From: a virus
Virus genome (UHGV): UHGV-1135478
Strand: one strand, 5' to 3'
Length of the DNA stretch: 22,302 nt
The translations under genes were made by a program, and so were the position numbers. This document shows, piece after piece, positions 1,151 to 21,120 of this stretch (its first letter is position 1; the number at the start of each line of letters is the position of its first letter). The notes under the pieces are model-generated. The model saw nothing but the letters and a program-made list of their open reading frames with translations, did no database searches and had not been told where the DNA came from.

Positions 1151-9166
<8,016 letters not shown>

Positions 9167-9168
9167 TA

Positions 9169-10335
9169 ATGGCAGTAGGTGAAATTCAAATTAGTGCCTT
9201 GCCTCAAGCAGCCTTACCAATTGACCTTAGTGATATCTTCCATCTTAAGCAGGGTATTGAGGATAAGAGATGTACTCTTGAGCAATTACTTGCTCCACAC
9301 TCAAGCCTAAGAAATAACCCTCACGGTGTTACTAAAACACAAATTGGTTTAGATAATGTTATCAATGCTCTTCAGTTAGTTGCTGCAAATAACTTATCAG
9401 ATGTTGCTAATGTCACTGAGGCAAGAGCAAATCTACAGATTATGTCTTCAGAAGAGGTTAATAGCCTTGTTCAACAGCATATTAATGATAAAAGTAACCC
9501 ACACAATACAACTAAGGCACAGGTTGGTTTGAGCAATGTCCAGAACTGGGTGACATCTAACCTTTATAATGAGGATGCAGATAAGTATGCTACAGCAAGA
9601 GCAGTAAATAACTTGTACAAGGCTGTTCAGGCTTCTTATCCAGTAGGTACTATCCATCTCTCTATGAATCCTGCAAACCCTTCTACATATTTAATTTGTG
9701 GAGGTACTTGGGAGTTAGTTTCAAGAGGAAGAGCACTTGTAGGTTATGATAGTGATTCTAGGCCAGTTGGTAGTAACTTTGGCTCAAGTAGTGTTAGCTT
9801 ATCTAGTAACAACCTACCATCACATAGCCATTCAATCTACCTAACTGGTGGTGGACACACTCATGGTGCTGCTATTACTATTGATGGCTTTGATTACGGC
9901 AATAAGAGCACAAACAGTTTCGATTATGGAACAAAGACCACTAATAGCACTGGTGCTCACACCCACTCAGTGAGTGGTTCAACAAATACCACAGGTAATC
10001 ACACACATACTGTAGGTGGTCGTTATGGTGGTGACTCTATCGGTGGTAAACATCGTGTTCAGGTCTCAGGGACTGAACAGGTTTCCAGTGTAGCTGGTGA
10101 CCACTCACACGCTATTAGCGGTTCAACAAATACCACAGGTAATCACCAACACACTGTTGCAATTGGTGCTCATACCCATACTGTTGCAATTGGTGCTCAT
10201 ACCCATAAAGGCACAGTAACTTTGCAGTCATCTGAGCATACTCACTCAGGTACTACAGGTACTACAGGTGCTGGTCAAGCATTTAGCATTGAACAACCAT
10301 CCTTTGTGGTTTATGTATGGCAAAGAACCGCTTAA
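9169..10335 (+). CDS. Tail fibre protein (tail-collar-like domain + His-x-His repeat C-terminus)
   Basis: 388 aa. N-terminal repeated motif NPHxxTKxQxGLxNV (twice). Collar-like segment …CGGTWELVSRGRALVG…LSSNNLPSHSHS…. C-terminus rich in HTH/HSH/HQH motifs (GAHTHSVSGSTNTTGNHTHTVGG…). RBS AGGAG. Confidence 0.8.
   Translation: MAVGEIQISALPQAALPIDLSDIFHLKQGIEDKRCTLEQLLAPHSSLRNNPHGVTKTQIGLDNVINALQLVAANNLSDVANVTEARANLQIMSSEEVNSLVQQHINDKSNPHNTTKAQVGLSNVQNWVTSNLYNEDADKYATARAVNNLYKAVQASYPVGTIHLSMNPANPSTYLICGGTWELVSRGRALVGYDSDSRPVGSNFGSSSVSLSSNNLPSHSHSIYLTGGGHTHGAAITIDGFDYGNKSTNSFDYGTKTTNSTGAHTHSVSGSTNTTGNHTHTVGGRYGGDSIGGKHRVQVSGTEQVSSVAGDHSHAISGSTNTTGNHQHTVAIGAHTHTVAIGAHTHKGTVTLQSSEHTHSGTTGTTGAGQAFSIEQPSFVVYVWQRTA
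9916..10089 (+). repeat. Direct repeat copy 1 (shared tail-fibre C-terminal module)
   Basis: Roughly 80% nt identity by eye to 12546-12719; identical runs ACTGGTGCTCACACCCACTCAGTGAGTGGTTC (9949-9980 = 12579-12610) and TATGGTGGTGACTCTATCGGTGGTAAAC. Confidence 0.8.
10153..10206 (+). repeat. Perfect in-frame tandem duplication, 2 x 27 nt (encodes TVAIGAHTH twice)
   Basis: ACTGTTGCAATTGGTGCTCATACCCAT occurs twice back-to-back with no mismatch (10153-10179 and 10180-10206). Confidence 0.85.
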
Positions 10336-10347
10336 AAATTCTTTTAC

Positions 10348-10370
10348 AGGGGGCTGTACAGCCCTCTTTC
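10348..10370 (+). terminator. Candidate rho-independent terminator between the two fibre genes
   Basis: AGGGGGCT (10348-10355) pairs with AGCCCTCT (10360-10367), 8 bp with one G-U and loop GTAC; short T tract follows. Confidence 0.45.
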
Positions 10371-10385
10371 TAGAGGACAAAAATA

Positions 10386-12905
10386 ATGGCAGATTACAAA
10401 TTGAGTGAATTAAACTCAATCGATACAATCCGTTCAGACGACCTTCTTCATGTCAGGGTTAAAAAGAGACCTGAAATGCTGGGTGATGAAGACCGTCGAA
10501 TGACCTATCAAGACTTCTTAGCATCTTTTAAGCTTGAAAGATTTGTTCAGATTGCTGGTAGTACTATGACTGGTGACTTAGGGATTGTTAAGTTACTTTA
10601 TGGTGGTAAGGCAGTCTTTGACCCTACAGGCTCTTCTGAGATTACTATGGGGGATATTTTAAAGACTTTTAAAATTAACGCAAATGGTCTTAAATTAACT
10701 ATTGCAGATGCTTCAAGGTCAGCAACTGTTTATCATACTCTGAATAAGCCAAGTCCTAATGAGCTTGGTATGAGAACTAATGAAGAGAATGACGCAAGAT
10801 ATGCAAGACTTGCTGTTACAAACACATTCTCTGGGACTCAGAACATTCAAGGTGATGTTAACTTACTTCGCCTTAGAAACCAAAATGCAAATAATGCACA
10901 ATATATTGAAGGTGTAGACCTAGATGGCTCGGCTAGATGGTTGGTTGGTATTAGCAAAAATGGTTCTGATGCAGTGCAGTTGTACAATAACAAATATGAC
11001 TCAGCTTTGACTATTGCAAGCAATATCTCTGTGAATAAGTCTCTAGCAATCACTGGTCAAGTACAACCTTCTGACTTCTCTAACTTAGATGCTAGATACT
11101 TTACTCAGACAGCAGCTAATCAGAGATTTGCACAGTTAGCTGTTAATAACACTTTTACAGGTGCTAATACTTTCACTAACCTTGTTGTTAAGAAGAATGC
11201 TAATGCTATTACTTTGCAGAATACTGATGCAGGTACAGCACTTTATATTCTTGGTAAGAAGTCTGATGGAACAAATAAATGGTATGTTGGTACAGATTCT
11301 GATGAGACACGTCTGAATATTTATAACTACATTACAGGTTCACAGGTTTCACTAGGTACTACTGTTGGTATTAATAAAACCTTGCAAATCAATGGTCAAG
11401 TTCAACCATCTGATTGGACTAACATTGACTCTAGATATATTCCGGCAGCAACATTAAGTACAATTGCAAGAACTAATACTCTCAATACATTTTCTGTACG
11501 ACAAGTTATCAACTCTGATGGTGAAGCTCTTGCGTTAAAAGCAAAAACTGAAACGACATTGTTCATTAGGGGGTGGGCTGCTGATGGGACAGCTAAGTGG
11601 TATGTTGGTAATGGTGATGCCGATAACAATAATAACTTAAGGCTGTTTAACTACAAAACAGGTAAAGTGCTTACCATTGGCTCAACATTCGAAATGAATG
11701 CAACTTTAGCAATCACTGGGCAGGTTCAACCTTCAGATTGGTCTAACATTGATGCGAGATACTACAACAAATCATCTGCTGATAACAGATATCTGAGAGT
11801 AAGAAGCACAGATTTCAATACTAGTGGTGCTGGTAAATGGGCTAAGATTGCAACTGTGAATATGCCACAAGGCGCATCAACAGCAGTGATTGAACTGTTT
11901 GGTGGGGCTGGATTTAACTTTGGCCTAATTGACCAAGCCTGTAAGACAGAAATTGTTCTTAGGACAGGGGATGGTAACCCAAAAGGCTTAAATGTTGTTG
12001 CATGGAAAAACTCACCGAATAGTGTTGTAAGTAGAATTGGGTATGTTAATACCTCTGGTGATAACTATGACATTTATTGCGCAGTTGGTAACTATCTAGC
12101 CGCTACAACAGCTAGGGTTCAGTCAACATCTAATGCAACAGTACAACTGTTTGAGGCTCCAGAGACATCTGACAACGCTCCATCTGGCTATGTTGATGGG
12201 ACAATTGCTCACTATTACACTAGTCTCTTGAAGCCAACACCTTCAGATATTGGTGCATATACTAAATCAGAAACTGACCAGAAGATTGCACAGGCAATTA
12301 GTGACTCTACAGACCTTAATAAAATCTATCCAGTAGGTATTGTAACGTGGTTTAACAGTAATGTTAACCCTAATACCGCACTTCCTGGATTAACTTGGAC
12401 GTACCTGAACAATGGTGTAGGTAGGACAATCAGGGTTGCAGCAGCTAATGGTTCAGATGTTGCTACAACTGGAGGCTCAGATTCTGTTACGTTAGCAGTT
12501 GGAAACTTACCTTCACACACTCATAGTTTCTCTGCGACAACCTCTAGCTTTGACTACGGTACTAAAACCACTAACACTACTGGTGCTCACACCCACTCAG
12601 TGAGTGGTTCTACTAACAACACTGGTGCTCATACACATACAGTTGGTGGTCATTATGGTGGTGACTCTATCGGTGGTAAACCTCGTGTTCAGGTATTTGG
12701 TACAGAACAGGTATCTAGCTCTGCTGGTGCTCACGCTCACACTGTATCTGGTACTGCTGCCTCTAACGGAAACCATGCTCACACTGTTGGTATTGGTGCT
12801 CACAGTCATACAGTTAGTGGTAACACTGGTGGTACAGGTTCTGGTTCAGCATTTAGTGTAACTAACCAGTTCTATAAGCTGATGGCTTGGGTAAGAACTG
12901 CTTAA
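10386..12905 (+). CDS. Long tail fibre protein (internal domain repeats; collar-like + His-x-His C-terminus)
   Basis: 839 aa; RBS AGAGGA. Three to four ~110-aa internal repeats, each ending …GQVQPSD(F/W)(S/T)N(L/I)D(A/S)RY. C-terminal ~190 aa homologous to fibre 1 (…GNLPSHTHS…GAHTHSVSGSTNNTGAHTHTVGGHYGGDSIGGK…). Confidence 0.85.
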   Translation: MADYKLSELNSIDTIRSDDLLHVRVKKRPEMLGDEDRRMTYQDFLASFKLERFVQIAGSTMTGDLGIVKLLYGGKAVFDPTGSSEITMGDILKTFKINANGLKLTIADASRSATVYHTLNKPSPNELGMRTNEENDARYARLAVTNTFSGTQNIQGDVNLLRLRNQNANNAQYIEGVDLDGSARWLVGISKNGSDAVQLYNNKYDSALTIASNISVNKSLAITGQVQPSDFSNLDARYFTQTAANQRFAQLAVNNTFTGANTFTNLVVKKNANAITLQNTDAGTALYILGKKSDGTNKWYVGTDSDETRLNIYNYITGSQVSLGTTVGINKTLQINGQVQPSDWTNIDSRYIPAATLSTIARTNTLNTFSVRQVINSDGEALALKAKTETTLFIRGWAADGTAKWYVGNGDADNNNNLRLFNYKTGKVLTIGSTFEMNATLAITGQVQPSDWSNIDARYYNKSSADNRYLRVRSTDFNTSGAGKWAKIATVNMPQGASTAVIELFGGAGFNFGLIDQACKTEIVLRTGDGNPKGLNVVAWKNSPNSVVSRIGYVNTSGDNYDIYCAVGNYLAATTARVQSTSNATVQLFEAPETSDNAPSGYVDGTIAHYYTSLLKPTPSDIGAYTKSETDQKIAQAISDSTDLNKIYPVGIVTWFNSNVNPNTALPGLTWTYLNNGVGRTIRVAAANGSDVATTGGSDSVTLAVGNLPSHTHSFSATTSSFDYGTKTTNTTGAHTHSVSGSTNNTGAHTHTVGGHYGGDSIGGKPRVQVFGTEQVSSSAGAHAHTVSGTAASNGNHAHTVGIGAHSHTVSGNTGGTGSGSAFSVTNQFYKLMAWVRTA
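10773..11795 (+). repeat. Tandem ~330-nt intragenic domain repeats in the long fibre gene
   Basis: GQVQPSD motif recurs at codons 224, 337 and 445 (nt ~11055, ~11394, ~11718) with flanking KWYVG / LAVxNTF motifs; copies are diverged at nt level. Confidence 0.6.
12546..12719 (+). repeat. Direct repeat copy 2 (shared tail-fibre C-terminal module)
   Basis: Counterpart of 9916-10089; see that entry. Confidence 0.8.
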
Positions 12906-17161: not shown

Positions 17162-17318
17162 TTGGCAGATTTTTTATAAGGCTACTGCCATCCTTCCATA
17201 CCAGACTACGCCATGCCAGACCAGACTTCACATCACCTTACCGTGCAATACATCGCTTAAAACCCTCTTAGAAGACTCTTAAGTGATGCTGGTGAGTACC
17301 CGTTGGTTCATGCTGCTC

Positions 17319-18457: not shown

Positions 18458-18650
18458 TTTTAACCTCTGAGTGATACCAAGTATTGCAAGCATTACATGC
18501 GTAAAGCTCTAAGTCATTTTTATCTGGTTTATGGAAACAGTTTGACCCACAACGACACCGGAATAGCTTACCATCAACACGAAGAATGAATTTTTCAAGC
18601 TCACCATCTTCTGTAAGAACTGCGTTCTTAAATTTATCTTCTACAGTCAT
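18432..18650 (-). CDS. Small Cys-rich zinc-finger-like protein (hypothetical)
   Basis: 72 aa with CRCGSNC…CNAC; ATGA start/stop overlap with the upstream gene. Confidence 0.55.
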   Translation of the reverse strand: MTVEDKFKNAVLTEDGELEKFILRVDGKLFRCRCGSNCFHKPDKNDLELYACNACNTWYHSEVKNDNPIQTK

Positions 18651-18853
18651 TTTCTCTTACCACCAATCTCTACGTCGATAACTTGAACATCACCAGCAAC
18701 ATCAAACTTATGAATGATGCTTTCCACAGTGTAAGTCCAACCATCAATGCGAACCAGCTCACCTTCTCGTGGGACGATTGGATTACGTTGAGCTATGGTT
18801 GTAGTGGAGTGAACAACATCATAACGGTAGATATAGTTTACTAGGACTTCCAT
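18647..18853 (-). CDS. Hypothetical protein
   Basis: Start set to ATG 18851-18853 (MEVLVNYIYRYD…) with RBS GAGGT 7 nt upstream; the longer track ORF (to 18952) would overlap the lipoprotein gene by ~90 nt. Confidence 0.5.
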   Translation of the reverse strand: MEVLVNYIYRYDVVHSTTTIAQRNPIVPREGELVRIDGWTYTVESIIHKFDVAGDVQVIDVEIGGKRK

Positions 18854-18863
18854 CGTGAAAACC

Positions 18864-19121
18864 TCACTCAATAACCGTAGTATGTGATTGACCATTTTTG
18901 CCGTAGCTATAAGATGTTGTTGTTTGAGAGTTTGGACATCTGACAACAACAATATCCCTACTTATAGCGTCACCATTGAGTTTGTAGATTTTGCAGTCTT
19001 GCATCTCTGGAGGGAGGCTATAAGAGGCGTCTTTGTTTTCATAAGATGGGTTACAGCCAGCCAGAAAAATTACTCCAAGTGCAACCATTGCTTTCACACA
19101 ACTCTTAACCTTATTGTTCAC
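18864..19121 (-). CDS. Putative lipoprotein (lipobox LAGC); candidate superinfection-exclusion factor
   Basis: GTG start preceded by RBS GAGAGG; N-terminus VNNKVKSCVKAMVALGVIFLAGC has a signal peptide and lipobox Cys; mature part ~62 aa with 3 more Cys. Confidence 0.55.
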   Translation of the reverse strand: MNNKVKSCVKAMVALGVIFLAGCNPSYENKDASYSLPPEMQDCKIYKLNGDAISRDIVVVRCPNSQTTTSYSYGKNGQSHTTVIE

Positions 19122-19257
19122 GATAGTCTACCTCTCTGTATGTTTTTAAATAGTGAGTGATGAGTTCTGGTAATTCACTACGTTTAACGTTTGAACGAAG
19201 AAGTGTCCAGTCAAAACCTTTACCAACCCTTCCCCAGAGACTGTACATTTTCTTCAT
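19111..19257 (-). CDS. Small basic protein, 48 aa (not in ORF track)
   Basis: ATG 19255-19257 overlaps the upstream stop (ATGA) with RBS GGAG 7 nt upstream; translates MKKMYSLWGRVGKGFDWTLLRSNVKRSELPELITHYLKTYREVDYREQ; stop TAA 19111-19113 overlaps the lipoprotein start. Confidence 0.4.
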   Translation of the reverse strand: MKKMYSLWGRVGKGFDWTLLRSNVKRSELPELITHYLKTYREVDYREQ

Positions 19258-19472
19258 AGCAACTCCAGAATATCAATACGTTCACCTTTGAGTACTCCAG
19301 TACGGTCTCTTGCAATCTTACCATCAACAATAAGAATGTGCGCAGACTTTAAAGAGTCACCATTAAAACCTTTTACGAACTTACTAGGCATCACTACAAT
19401 GGACATCTCCTGAATCAACTCTGGAGTATAGCAATTGTCGTGAAGTTGCTGAATAACGTCTGCAAGTGTCAT
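19254..19472 (-). CDS. Hypothetical protein
   Basis: Start set to ATG 19470-19472 (MTLADVIQQ…), overlapping the upstream stop (ATGA); the ORF-track start 19487 is a TTG. Confidence 0.5.
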   Translation of the reverse strand: MTLADVIQQLHDNCYTPELIQEMSIVVMPSKFVKGFNGDSLKSAHILIVDGKIARDRTGVLKGERIDILELL

Positions 19473-19678
19473 TTTTGATGTCTCCAATACTCAATGTCAA
19501 TAAGTTCTTGTGCAATGCTTTTTAGATTACCTTTCAAGAAAACCTTCTCAGAACCTGAAAGAGATGAATTGTCAATTAACCTGTTCATTCTCTCAAACAA
19601 CTTCTGCTTACGGTTCTTGATAGTTTCCTTTGAAGCACCTTTCATCATTGCTGCATGGGTTCTTCCACGGTGGCTCAT
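19469..19678 (-). CDS. Hypothetical small basic protein
   Basis: 69 aa; strong RBS AGGAGG 5 nt before ATG 19676-19678. Confidence 0.6.
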   Translation of the reverse strand: MSHRGRTHAAMMKGASKETIKNRKQKLFERMNRLIDNSSLSGSEKVFLKGNLKSIAQELIDIEYWRHQK

Positions 19679-19704
19679 AAGCCCTCCTATACAAGATATA
19701 GTAT

Positions 19705-19733
19705 AAGGTACTCTTCCCTGAGCACCTTGTCAA
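19705..19733 (-). promoter_or_regulatory. Candidate promoter P3 (TTGACA-N17-TACCTT; weak -10)
   Basis: - strand -35 TTGACA at 19728-19733, overlapping the HNH stop; -10 TACCTT at 19705-19710; shares GTTGACAAG context with P2. Confidence 0.3.
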
Positions 19734-20266
19734 CTTAGTTTTGCAAACTCTCCGTGGAGTTTAATAGCAGCTTCACAGTAAGCTTTATGGGCTTCTTCAG
19801 GTGTGTCAAACATACCAAGATGATAGTTTTTACCTTGTAAACGTATCATTGCTCGAAACCTTTTATTTATCTTCTGTACACCTTTTGGCAACCCAGATTG
19901 GGACTTTCTTGACCGATTGCAAGAGTTTTGTGAAGCTGTACAAACCCTTAAATTCAAGTACCTATTGTCCCAACCGTCCCCATTCTTATGGTCAACCTGT
20001 AAGGTTTTATCAGGCAAATATCCATCCACATACAAGATAACTAAACGATTTGCTTGGTAACTCCTTCCATCAATCAGCAACTGAACTGACTTGTGTCCAT
20101 CAGTATTTGTTCTGTAGTTTCCAGCCCTCTTACCTCCAAATCTAGAGTTAAAATTTGCATTACCTTCTCTAAACTTCCAAGTAAAGACCCCTATTTCGGG
20201 GTCGTAGTCCAATAGCTCCTTAAGACGAATTTCTGTAATCATTTCAACACCATCAATGTACCTCAT
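19730..20266 (-). CDS. Free-standing HNH homing endonuclease with C-terminal AP2 DNA-binding domain
   Basis: HNH motif …LQVDHKNGDGWDNRYLNLRVCTASQN…; AP2-like segment …GVQKINKRFRAMIRLQGKNYHLGMFDTPEEAHKAYCEAAIKLHGEF…. Start set to ATG 20264-20266 (RBS AAGAG), overlapping the last 14 nt of the polymerase. Confidence 0.85.
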   Translation of the reverse strand: MRYIDGVEMITEIRLKELLDYDPEIGVFTWKFREGNANFNSRFGGKRAGNYRTNTDGHKSVQLLIDGRSYQANRLVILYVDGYLPDKTLQVDHKNGDGWDNRYLNLRVCTASQNSCNRSRKSQSGLPKGVQKINKRFRAMIRLQGKNYHLGMFDTPEEAHKAYCEAAIKLHGEFAKLS

Positions 20267-20809
20267 ACCAGCTCTTACCAACCTTACCTGTGCCAGTTAC
20301 AAGCGTCTCACTCTTCAAACCTAAATTCTTAGATGCCTGACCATACATCCAGTCAGTTATGGCTTTAACTTCTTGAGTCATACTTTCTGGGCATTCCCAA
20401 CTGTTCTCATCGTGGTATGCCAGCAAAAGTCTAGCACCAATTGCTGGTTTCCGTCCATTTAATTTTGTCAACCCTTCTTCACATGCTCTTCTACAAGCAA
20501 GGTTAATTGCCTCGTTCTGAATCTGACTTTCCGAACCCATGAGCAAATAATTCAATAACTTATGTGGAGATTTACACCACAACCAAGCTCCAGCAACCTT
20601 TACAAAACCCCCTTTAGAGATTGCAGCAGTCTTACCAAACACCTCTTCAAGTGCCTTTTTAGTTGCTTTGTAGTCAGCTTCCAAGTCATCTAGCAACTTC
20701 TTAATTTTAGGGAGGCGTACAAAGTAAGTTTGCTTAGTTAAAGCACCTTCTTCGGTTGTTGATGCTTTAATCGTCTTAGCAAACTTCTCATCACCTGCAC
20801 CGAACAATA
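20253..20809 (-). CDS. DNA polymerase, family A (T7 gp5 / Pol I type), exon 2 (C-terminal)
   Basis: Begins within motif B (…LFGAGDEKFAKT…, cf. T7 …FLYGAGDEKIG…); motif C YHDE; C-terminal …GKSWYEVH typical of family A. Confidence 0.85.
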
Positions 20810-21120
20810 CATCTGGTCAATACACTCGCAAGGTGTACCAGTTCTCTTATGAACTTCTCCGCATTTCTACGGAGTGTCGGACTATATCACGTAGTAGTAA
20901 TACTACCGTTGCACTTGGGAATGGTCATTAGCTTACCACCCTACTCTACTCAGTTCATACATTAAGTATGCTTTTCGATAGTCTCTGAACGTTTCTCTGT
21001 TAGGAATCTCTATAGTTATGTTATTTGCTTTAGGAGTCCTAACAGAGACTTCGCTGCTGATTACCATATCTTTACAGACTTAGGCTTCCAGCAATTCACA
21101 ACGTTTTACATGCGCCACTG
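20810..21120 (-). ncRNA. Group I self-splicing intron (311 nt, no ORF) in the DNA polymerase gene
   Basis: On the - strand: R element GTTCAGAGACTA (20979-20990) and S element GATATAGTCC (20879-20888) form the P7 core. Intron 5' region GCGCAT pairs with exon-1 end ATGCGT (P1, U-G at splice site). Intron ends in G. Stops in all frames. Confidence 0.8.

Follow-up and report, generated by a model that had tools for sequence, protein, structure and literature searches.

An Old Pair of His-x-His Rungs in the Short Tail Fibre of a Felix O1-like Phage, Probably Homogenised at Silent Sites in Recent Time

What does a perfect tandem repeat inside a fibre gene record: the gain of a structural unit, or the rewriting of a unit that was already there? 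This question is raised by the 22,302-nt stretch of virus genome UHGV-1135478 analysed here (hereafter, the window), in which ACTGTTGCAATTGGTGCTCATACCCAT stands at 10153–10179 and again at 10180–10206, head to tail and with 0 mismatches. Tandem Repeats Finder places the repeat at 10153–10207 (period 27, 2.0 copies, 100% matches, score 110) and ranks it as the top-scoring tandem repeat of the 22.3-kb window; the chance expectation for a perfect 27-nt tandem in 22.3 kb is about 1e-12. The repeat, as a sequence-only reading of this DNA had described it, is confirmed as real and non-random. It lies in frame within the ORF at 9169–10335 (+) and encodes TVAIGAHTH twice (aa 329–337 and 338–346). The same reading took it for a very recent duplication, or else for a repeat of unstable copy number, which would change the number of rungs in a short fibre. 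The account favoured here, in which we place considerable confidence, keeps the recent event and replaces the duplication with the homogenisation of two or three silent sites: the rungs would be an old pair, in which the 3′ end of unit 1 was recently overwritten from unit 2 and the copy number is held by strand pairing. The gene, its needle region and the two units are as follows.

9169..10335, plus strand: short tail fibre gene of a Felix O1-like phage, 388 aa (from the ORF, its identity with the phage Mushroom gene and a match to 2XGF)
9823..10245, plus strand: needle and head region, with nine HxH motifs (from motif positions in the translation)
10153..10179, plus strand: unit 1, TVAIGAHTH, aa 329–337, a putative returning-strand rung (H335-x-H337), counterpart of T4 gp37 H989/H991
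10180..10206, plus strand: unit 2, TVAIGAHTH, aa 338–346, a putative returning-strand rung (H344-x-H346), counterpart of T4 gp37 H998/H1000

The identity of the two units at silent sites is not explained by protein constraint, since identical coding has a probability of only ~6e-4 if both units are to read TVAIGAHTH with the codon usage of the structural genes of the window. A natural control is offered by a relative (L031) that carries TVAIGAHSH twice: its units are protein-identical, yet differ at 8 of 27 nt, which supports the expectation that silent sites of such units normally diverge. Within the window, comparison of the other His-x-His units shows that they have diverged, and the sequence-only reading was right to see in the identical silent sites a sign of a recent sequence event. 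Besides unit 1, GCTCATACCCAT occurs in the window at unit 2 alone. The window ORF list contains no minus-strand ORF of at least 60 aa across the repeat, and a promoter and terminator scan around the short fibre gene gave nothing exceeding the shuffled expectation.

The gene itself is 100% identical to a CDS annotated as "tail fiber protein" in Salmonella phage Mushroom (Felixounavirus) and is 94.6–99% identical in dozens of Felix O1-like Salmonella phages; unverified drafts aside, the Salmonella-clade genes are all 1167 nt long. It comes after the baseplate wedge genes and ahead of the long fibre, in the order Baseplate_J-like (6535–8004), 8007–8864, 8864–9166, short fibre (9169–10335) and long fibre (10386–12905), and has orthologs in 29 IMG/VR Felix-like contigs. 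An N-terminal baseplate-binding part is followed by a T4 gp37-type tip consisting of a collar, an HxH needle, a head and a returning needle strand, with a Pfam Gp10_C match at aa 154–270. The whole window is most similar to GEC_vB_NS7 (98.1% identical). The identity of the fibre gene suggested that the window might be Mushroom, which is ruled out by a whole-window identity of 97.6%; positions ~9001–12000 are identical in the two and the adjoining blocks are 3–15% different. The window is thus a mosaic relative to Mushroom, and recombination is therefore active in these phages. The cryo-EM study of the Felixounavirus Bas63 found that the genus has one short and one long fibre, in agreement with the "short fibre" label of the sequence-only reading (PMC12609058). 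Both Bas63 fibres end in a T4 gp37-like tip with a collar, a six-stranded HxH needle and a chain-reversing head, and metal coordination on the axis was proposed for them (PMC12609058).

A phmmer search against the PDB aligned aa 146–359 of the short fibre with residues 18–227 of chain 2xgf_A (E 9.6e-25). [quoted passage not shown] (2010). The two TVAIGAHTH units align with T4 gp37 983–991 (SVGIGAHTH) and 992–1000 (TVAIGSHGH), where the T4 residue numbers are taken from the 2XGF alignment and anchored on H929/H931 (PMC6957217). Four outgoing HxH motifs (aa 219, 230, 264 and 278) are followed by a 34-residue head gap and five returning motifs (aa 312, 326, 335, 344 and 357). The resulting spacing is 11, 34, 14, (34, head), 14, 9, 9, 13, compared with 32, 14, (37, head), 14, 9, 9 in T4 gp37; the returning-strand spacing of 14, 9, 9 is the same in both. 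In total, the short fibre has nine HxH motifs, the long-fibre paralog six, T4 gp37 seven and the Bas63-type ortholog seven. Against the Pfam family PF03335 (Phage_fiber, phage tail fibre repeat), the C-terminal fragment of the short fibre scores 13.7 bits, with AIGAHTHTVAIG as its best stretch, short of the 20-bit gathering threshold; the corresponding scores are 21.3 bits for the unit of the long-fibre paralog and 26.8 bits for those of T4 gp37, both of which pass. On alignment and motif spacing together, the short fibre can be assigned to the T4 gp37-type tips.

In T4 gp37, seven irons are held by the HxH histidines, with three chains contributing to each motif, and alanine at H929 or H931 abolishes plaque formation (PMC6957217). 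By homology, the two units would be adjacent nine-residue rungs of the type x-V-x-I-G-x-H-x-H on the returning strand of a six-stranded needle. At each TVAIGAHTH rung, the His-x-His of three chains would bind one metal ion on the fibre axis (iron in T4), and the metal would rivet the needle together. The likeness to T4 extends to the collar-needle-head plan, the chain that doubles back, the pattern of HxH spacing and the pair itself: T4 gp37 has the same adjacent nine-residue units, preceded by two outgoing xDxGTK units (TDLGTK and FDYGTK). Several differences stand beside it. T4 gp37 forms the distal half of a long fibre, whereas the protein of the window is a short, 388-aa fibre attached to the baseplate; the nine HxH motifs of the latter exceed the seven of the former by one at each collar-proximal end. 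The head sequences differ, as do the C-termini (…VYVWQRTA in the window fibre, …NIAFNYIVRLA in the recovered T4 gp37-like relatives), and the T4 units have diverged (GAH versus GSH), whereas those of the window are identical.

If the second unit were new, relatives would be expected to carry one. Alignment of the 29 IMG/VR orthologs and of 11 further GenBank orthologs places both units at the same codons throughout; every ortholog aligned has at least two, and three or four occur in certain lineages. Each Salmonella-clade genome examined has the pair at codons 329–346 of a 388-aa protein. Judged by codon position across these alignments, the pair is ancient and orthologous throughout the family. 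For a check of copy number, a 91-nt query spanning the repeat was compared with GenBank phages, and all 54 of the 54 full-length matches were ungapped, that is, with two copies each; no one-unit or three-unit variant occurs among these records. The identical 91 nt were present in 15 records of independent isolates, in addition to the distinct genome studied here; these records represent 13 named phages, whose countries of origin include the USA, Georgia and Russia. Unverified drafts of odd length (1133–1161 nt) yielded no copy variants either. All are ungapped over the repeat, so their length differences lie elsewhere in the gene, and inspection of the sequences of GE_vB_B1 and GE_vB_B3 found the repeat region intact. 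The two-copy number is fixed as far as public genomes show. The suggestion of an unstable copy number therefore finds no backing in these records, and comparison with related phages places the second copy in all relatives compared, with no copy variants among near-identical genomes. Nor has the number of rungs changed, as had been supposed, for the nine HxH motifs are the same in number as in every two-unit ortholog.

Across the family, the unit number does vary, from 1 to 6, always alongside a partner unit on the other strand. The corresponding features within the window are the presumed outgoing partners of units 1 and 2 and the single returning unit of the paralog.

9886..9945, plus strand: two outgoing 10-residue units, GFDYGNKSTN and SFDYGTKTTN (from 1:1 co-variation with the returning units)
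12783..12809, plus strand: TVGIGAHSH, the one homologous unit of the long-tail-fibre paralog, ORF 10386–12905, 839 aa (from the Pfam PF03335 match)

The two outgoing units of the short fibre differ at 10 of 30 nt and are thus not homogenised. They are of the type x-F-D-Y-G-x-K-x-T-x, and all architectures compared have as many of them as they have returning x-V-x-I-G-x-H-x-H units. The long-fibre paralog, which has six HxH motifs, is 1:1, with a single returning unit and a single outgoing FDYGTK unit. The short fibre is 2:2, as are T4 gp37 and many prophage side-tail fibres; L018, L026, L030 and L031 are 3:3, and L024 and L025 are 4:4. A wider test used the best 150 of the 323 matches obtained when 1.84 billion cluster representatives were searched. 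Under strict patterns, outgoing and returning counts agreed in 122 of the 150; the 28 exceptions comprised 14 fragments or frameshifted sequences, otherwise mostly pattern misses, and one ambiguous case (P0130). A measure independent of these patterns compares the outgoing HxH-to-HxH gap with n, the number of returning links of exactly nine residues. The gap follows ~12–14 + 10n and fits 115 of 119 diverse representatives: it is 22–24 residues at n = 1 (5/5), 32–34 at n = 2 (81/82), 41–42 at n = 3 (21/24), 52–54 at n = 4 (4/4), 62–65 at n = 5 (3/3) and 73 at n = 6 (1/1). As read from these counts, the needle lengthens and shortens in matched out-and-back modules, from 1:1 to 6:6.

Such co-variation in number suggests that the FDYGxK units physically contact the returning rungs. 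Each returning rung would then need a 10-residue outgoing FDYGxK unit, and the copy number would stay at two in a fibre that has two of these. Adding or removing 27 nt on one side only would put the strands out of register and would presumably be unfit, which may be why a slippage-prone repeat is found without copy variants.

The short fibre of Bas63 (gp26) is an ortholog in the same gene position and likewise ends in a gp37-like tip whose needle carries HxH motifs (PMC12609058). Among the IMG/VR loci, L018 comes closest to the Bas63 gene: it is 98.4% identical to that gene at the nucleotide level and encodes a protein with ~75% aa identity to that of the window. The Bas63-type fibre has seven HxH motifs, 3:3 units and no outgoing HxH beyond aa 230, compared with nine motifs and 2:2 units in the window fibre. 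The count of seven obtained here for the Bas63-type ortholog equals the published number.

With an old pair and a constant copy number, what calls for explanation is the identity of the two units, and here the variation among close relatives is informative. In the Salmonella Felix O1 clade, unit 2 is invariant, and unit 1 equals unit 2 over the first 20 nt in every member. The last 9 nt of unit 1 occur as three silent haplotypes with the same peptide. The first, h0 (CAT ACC CAT), matches unit 2 and is carried by the window, Mushroom, SBA-1781, GEC_vB_B1, VSe11 and others; the second, h1, reads CAC ACG CAT; and the third, h2, reads CAC ACA CAC and is that of Felix O1. Close relatives differ from h0 at 2–3 silent sites, all at the 3′ end of unit 1, and in more distant orthologs the units within a gene differ at 5–13 of 27 nt. 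The perfect state occurs in no sequence that shares less than 98% identity with the window. As all three haplotypes encode one peptide, homogenisation would have been without effect on the protein.

For the direction of change, a neighbour-joining distance tree of 17 (recombining) sequences was built with the repeat removed, L004 as the outgroup and 500 bootstraps. The most divergent members of the Salmonella clade are h1; genomes with h0 fall well inside the tree, close to its tips. In the 500 bootstraps, the Fitch root state was h1 in 348, h1 or h2 in 148 and h2 alone in 2, and it included h0 in 2. The perfect state is thus derived in 498 of 500 bootstraps, within the bounds of a simple distance tree of recombining sequences. 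Monophyly of the perfect-repeat taxa was recovered in 85 of 500, which is too weak to establish a single origin of the perfect repeat, and recombination could blur the polarity.

The substitutions themselves are clustered. The window and Felix O1 differ at 13 positions in 1113 nt outside the repeat and at 3 positions within 9 nt of unit 1, and all three of the latter change to the base of unit 2. The probability of such clustering is ~2e-4, before any factor for the matching bases, a value computed after the pattern had been seen. A search of the window for a donor of h0 or h2 other than unit 2 found none. The sites concerned delimit the tract that would have been copied.

10173..10179, plus strand: putative converted tract at its minimal extent; it takes in unit 1 silent sites 21, 24 and 27 (10173, 10176 and 10179; from haplotype comparison)

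A derived state that matches the neighbouring unit at clustered sites, a donor within the genome and flanking identity, the features by which gene conversion is recognised, are all found at this locus. We infer that unit 2 was copied onto unit 1 by gene conversion. The overwriting of the 3′ end of unit 1 by unit 2 would have taken place in a crown group of Salmonella Felix O1-like phages to which this genome belongs. Its likely route is out-of-register pairing of the units over the 20 nt they had in common, with subsequent repair or template switching. Two or three silent sites would have changed at once, leaving a perfect 54-nt tandem and an unaltered protein.

An earlier round of the same process is likely. 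Unit 2 has the ancestral G-S-H in T4 and in the E. coli-phage orthologs and changed in the Salmonella clade to G-A-H, as in unit 1, which suggests an older homogenisation on the stem of that clade. Over the family at large, units within a genome resemble each other more than units of different genomes do (5.94 versus 7.49 differences, permutation P ~1e-4, in a test that ignores phylogeny and is confounded by shared ancestry), and at silent sites in the E. coli-phage clade P is 0.03–0.10. These values are only suggestive of recurrent, family-wide conversion.

Four other histories would leave the same perfect pair, and a fifth would deny that the pair exists. The one that comes closest to overwriting from unit 2, though we regard it as unlikely, is a cycle of loss and regain, in which one unit is dropped by unequal crossing-over, or by slippage across the 20 nt in common, and a second event restores two. 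The substrate for slippage is there, as the 20-nt identity occurs in all clade members, and the final product equals the one observed, a product that sequence alone cannot separate from that of conversion. By reasoning, however, slippage in the 5′ 20 nt yields a single unit or the order unit 1–unit 1–unit 2, and never unit 2–unit 2 in one step. Two rare events would be needed, through an intermediate with unmatched strands that the pairing rule suggests is unfit, and the 54 records hold no one-unit or three-unit variant that might represent such an intermediate.

Slightly less probable still is a perfect repeat that was ancestral in the Salmonella clade, left by the older homogenisation, with h1 and h2 as later point mutations in unit 1. 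The clade-wide identity of the first 20 nt and the change of GSH to GAH in unit 2 do suggest an older event on the stem. An ancestral perfect state is contradicted, however, by the distribution of haplotypes: the most divergent clade members are all h1, the perfect state is limited to the sequences nearest the window, and h0 reaches the Fitch root in just the 2 of 500 bootstraps given above. The same two-site change would also have had to occur several times over.

It is very improbable that independent silent point mutations, or selection on codons, made unit 1 equal to unit 2. Two or three substitutions would suffice, but all of them would have to fall within 9 nt and take the unit-2 base against a background divergence of 1.2–1.9%, for which P is ~1e-3 to 7e-6. 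As for codon selection, ACC is rare among the Thr codons here (10%) and is hence not favoured.

Just as improbable is the fresh duplication first proposed, namely slippage on a single TVAIGAHTH that added a rung. In its favour is the identity of all 27 nt, silent sites included. Against it, every ortholog and T4 gp37 have both units at the same codons, the two units of the closest relatives differ at just 2–3 sites, and the rung count of nine is that of the orthologs. The two outgoing partners, diverged at 10 of 30 nt, also speak against a recent co-duplication. Of that proposal, the recent event stands and the duplication does not. Finally, an assembly artefact concealing a single copy, which the sequence-only reading had named as its own refutation, is hardly credible: short perfect tandems are occasionally mis-assembled, but 15 records produced independently of one another, besides this distinct genome, have the same 91 nt, the 54-nt repeat is shorter than any sequencing read, and a single copy would break both the universal out:back pairing and the 388-aa length common to the relatives.

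Overwriting of unit 1 from unit 2 remains the best-supported account, and it has parallels in known systems. In T-even phages, homologous exchange reportedly takes place at short conserved coding motifs of the fibre tips, and small internal duplications are reportedly found in host-range mutants of T4 gp37, both according to Tetart et al. (in work dated 1996 and 1998). Two later papers cite the work of Tetart et al. on fibre adhesins (PMC3157838; PMC6669636). Unlike T-even adhesin exchange, the event proposed here would be non-reciprocal and silent, would act between neighbouring units, and would leave copy number and protein unchanged. The locus also resembles the concerted evolution of tandem coding repeats, in that a derived, neighbour-identical state appears at clustered silent sites beside flanking identity that permits mispairing. 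It differs in that only two units are involved, the informative tract is at least 7 nt and at most ~27 nt, and recurrence across the family is weakly supported.

In kind, nothing at this locus departs from what is already known: the gene had been annotated as a tail fibre before, and its two units belong to the His-x-His rungs known from gp37-like needles. The perfect identity amounts to a silent haplotype within a small clade and matters little as a finding. It has modest value as a clean natural case, from a virulent phage, in which adjacent coding repeats were homogenised over a very short tract. It is doubtful in the extreme, to our judgement, that the homogenised 54-nt tandem acts as a slippage hot spot that yields low-frequency one- or three-rung fibres, sometimes rescued by changes in the outgoing units. 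If it did, the hot spot would be a contingency-type source of variants in needle length and host range, and raw material for the diversity from 1:1 to 6:6. The 2XGF structure may already imply the pairing rule, which was not found spelled out in the accessible literature. The rule, likewise of modest value, predicts the length changes that gp37-like needles would tolerate and is useful for the engineering of fibre tips and for judging indels in fibre genes.

Identity between adjacent histidine rungs can be maintained at the level of the protein, as illustrated by L031 (IMGVR_UViG_2883854425_000001), a fibre locus from a distant relative in which the fibre gene starts at 1501. Its two adjacent TVAIGAHSH units are protein-identical, yet they differ at 8 of 27 nucleotides, including those of the serine codons (AGC versus TCA). 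The locus serves as a natural control showing that selection keeps rungs identical without nucleotide identity.

Among the gp37-like tip proteins of the representative library (the 150 best of 323 matches), some distant tips (P0107, P0121, and P0146) carry five or six out-and-back modules, each pairing an outgoing 10-residue unit with a returning 9-residue HxH rung. In tips of this type, the outgoing units are degenerate (e.g., TNLGSP and HDYGTI) and the 10-residue period is kept. The tip of P0130, in which two outgoing HxH motifs have been lost, is ambiguous.

Further repeats and a palindrome lie in and between the two fibre genes, both of which are on the plus strand:

10247-10269, short fibre gene: small perfect tandem, 2.6 copies of CAGGTACTA, encoding GTTGTTG
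10341-10359, between the short and long fibre genes: GC-rich palindrome GGGCTGTACAGCCC, then TCTTTCT
12570-12650, long fibre gene: 42-nt tandem, 1.9 copies, 79% matches

The CAGGTACTA repeat is a second perfect tandem in the short fibre gene, located 40 nt 3' of the 27-nt tandem; at this position, relatives have GTTGATG or GNTNSVG. The long-fibre tandem comprises two outgoing 14-residue HxH units, TNTTGAHTHSVSGS and TNNTGAHTHTVGG, and is an older, diverged repeat within the same needle. The palindrome looks like a small putative terminator or stem-loop; a consensus scan made no call at 10341-10359.

In Bas63 (JohannRWettstein), the short-fibre ortholog is a 382-aa protein (GenBank MZ501086.1, 19499-20647) that the record labels "long tail fiber protein". 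The cryo-EM study, by contrast, assigns two distinct fibres to the genus, a short one of 430 angstroms (gp26) and a long one (gp27) (PMC12609058); the label is probably an annotation mismatch.

Compared along its whole length (1-22302) with Salmonella phage Mushroom, the window is a recombinational mosaic, with identical blocks at 1-1500, ~9001-12000, and 18501-20925 and differences of 3-15% in the remaining blocks. An insertion/deletion difference adjoins the DNA ligase gene: just 43 nt of the window (17203-17245) stand in place of ~1.45 kb of Mushroom sequence carrying two hypothetical-protein CDSs (Mushroom46 and Mushroom47). Within the long fibre, the N-terminal two-thirds belong, together with the short fibre, to the ~9001-12000 block, whereas the receptor-binding tip (12001-12905) contains 48 mismatches, a distribution suggesting that this tip was exchanged separately from its shaft.
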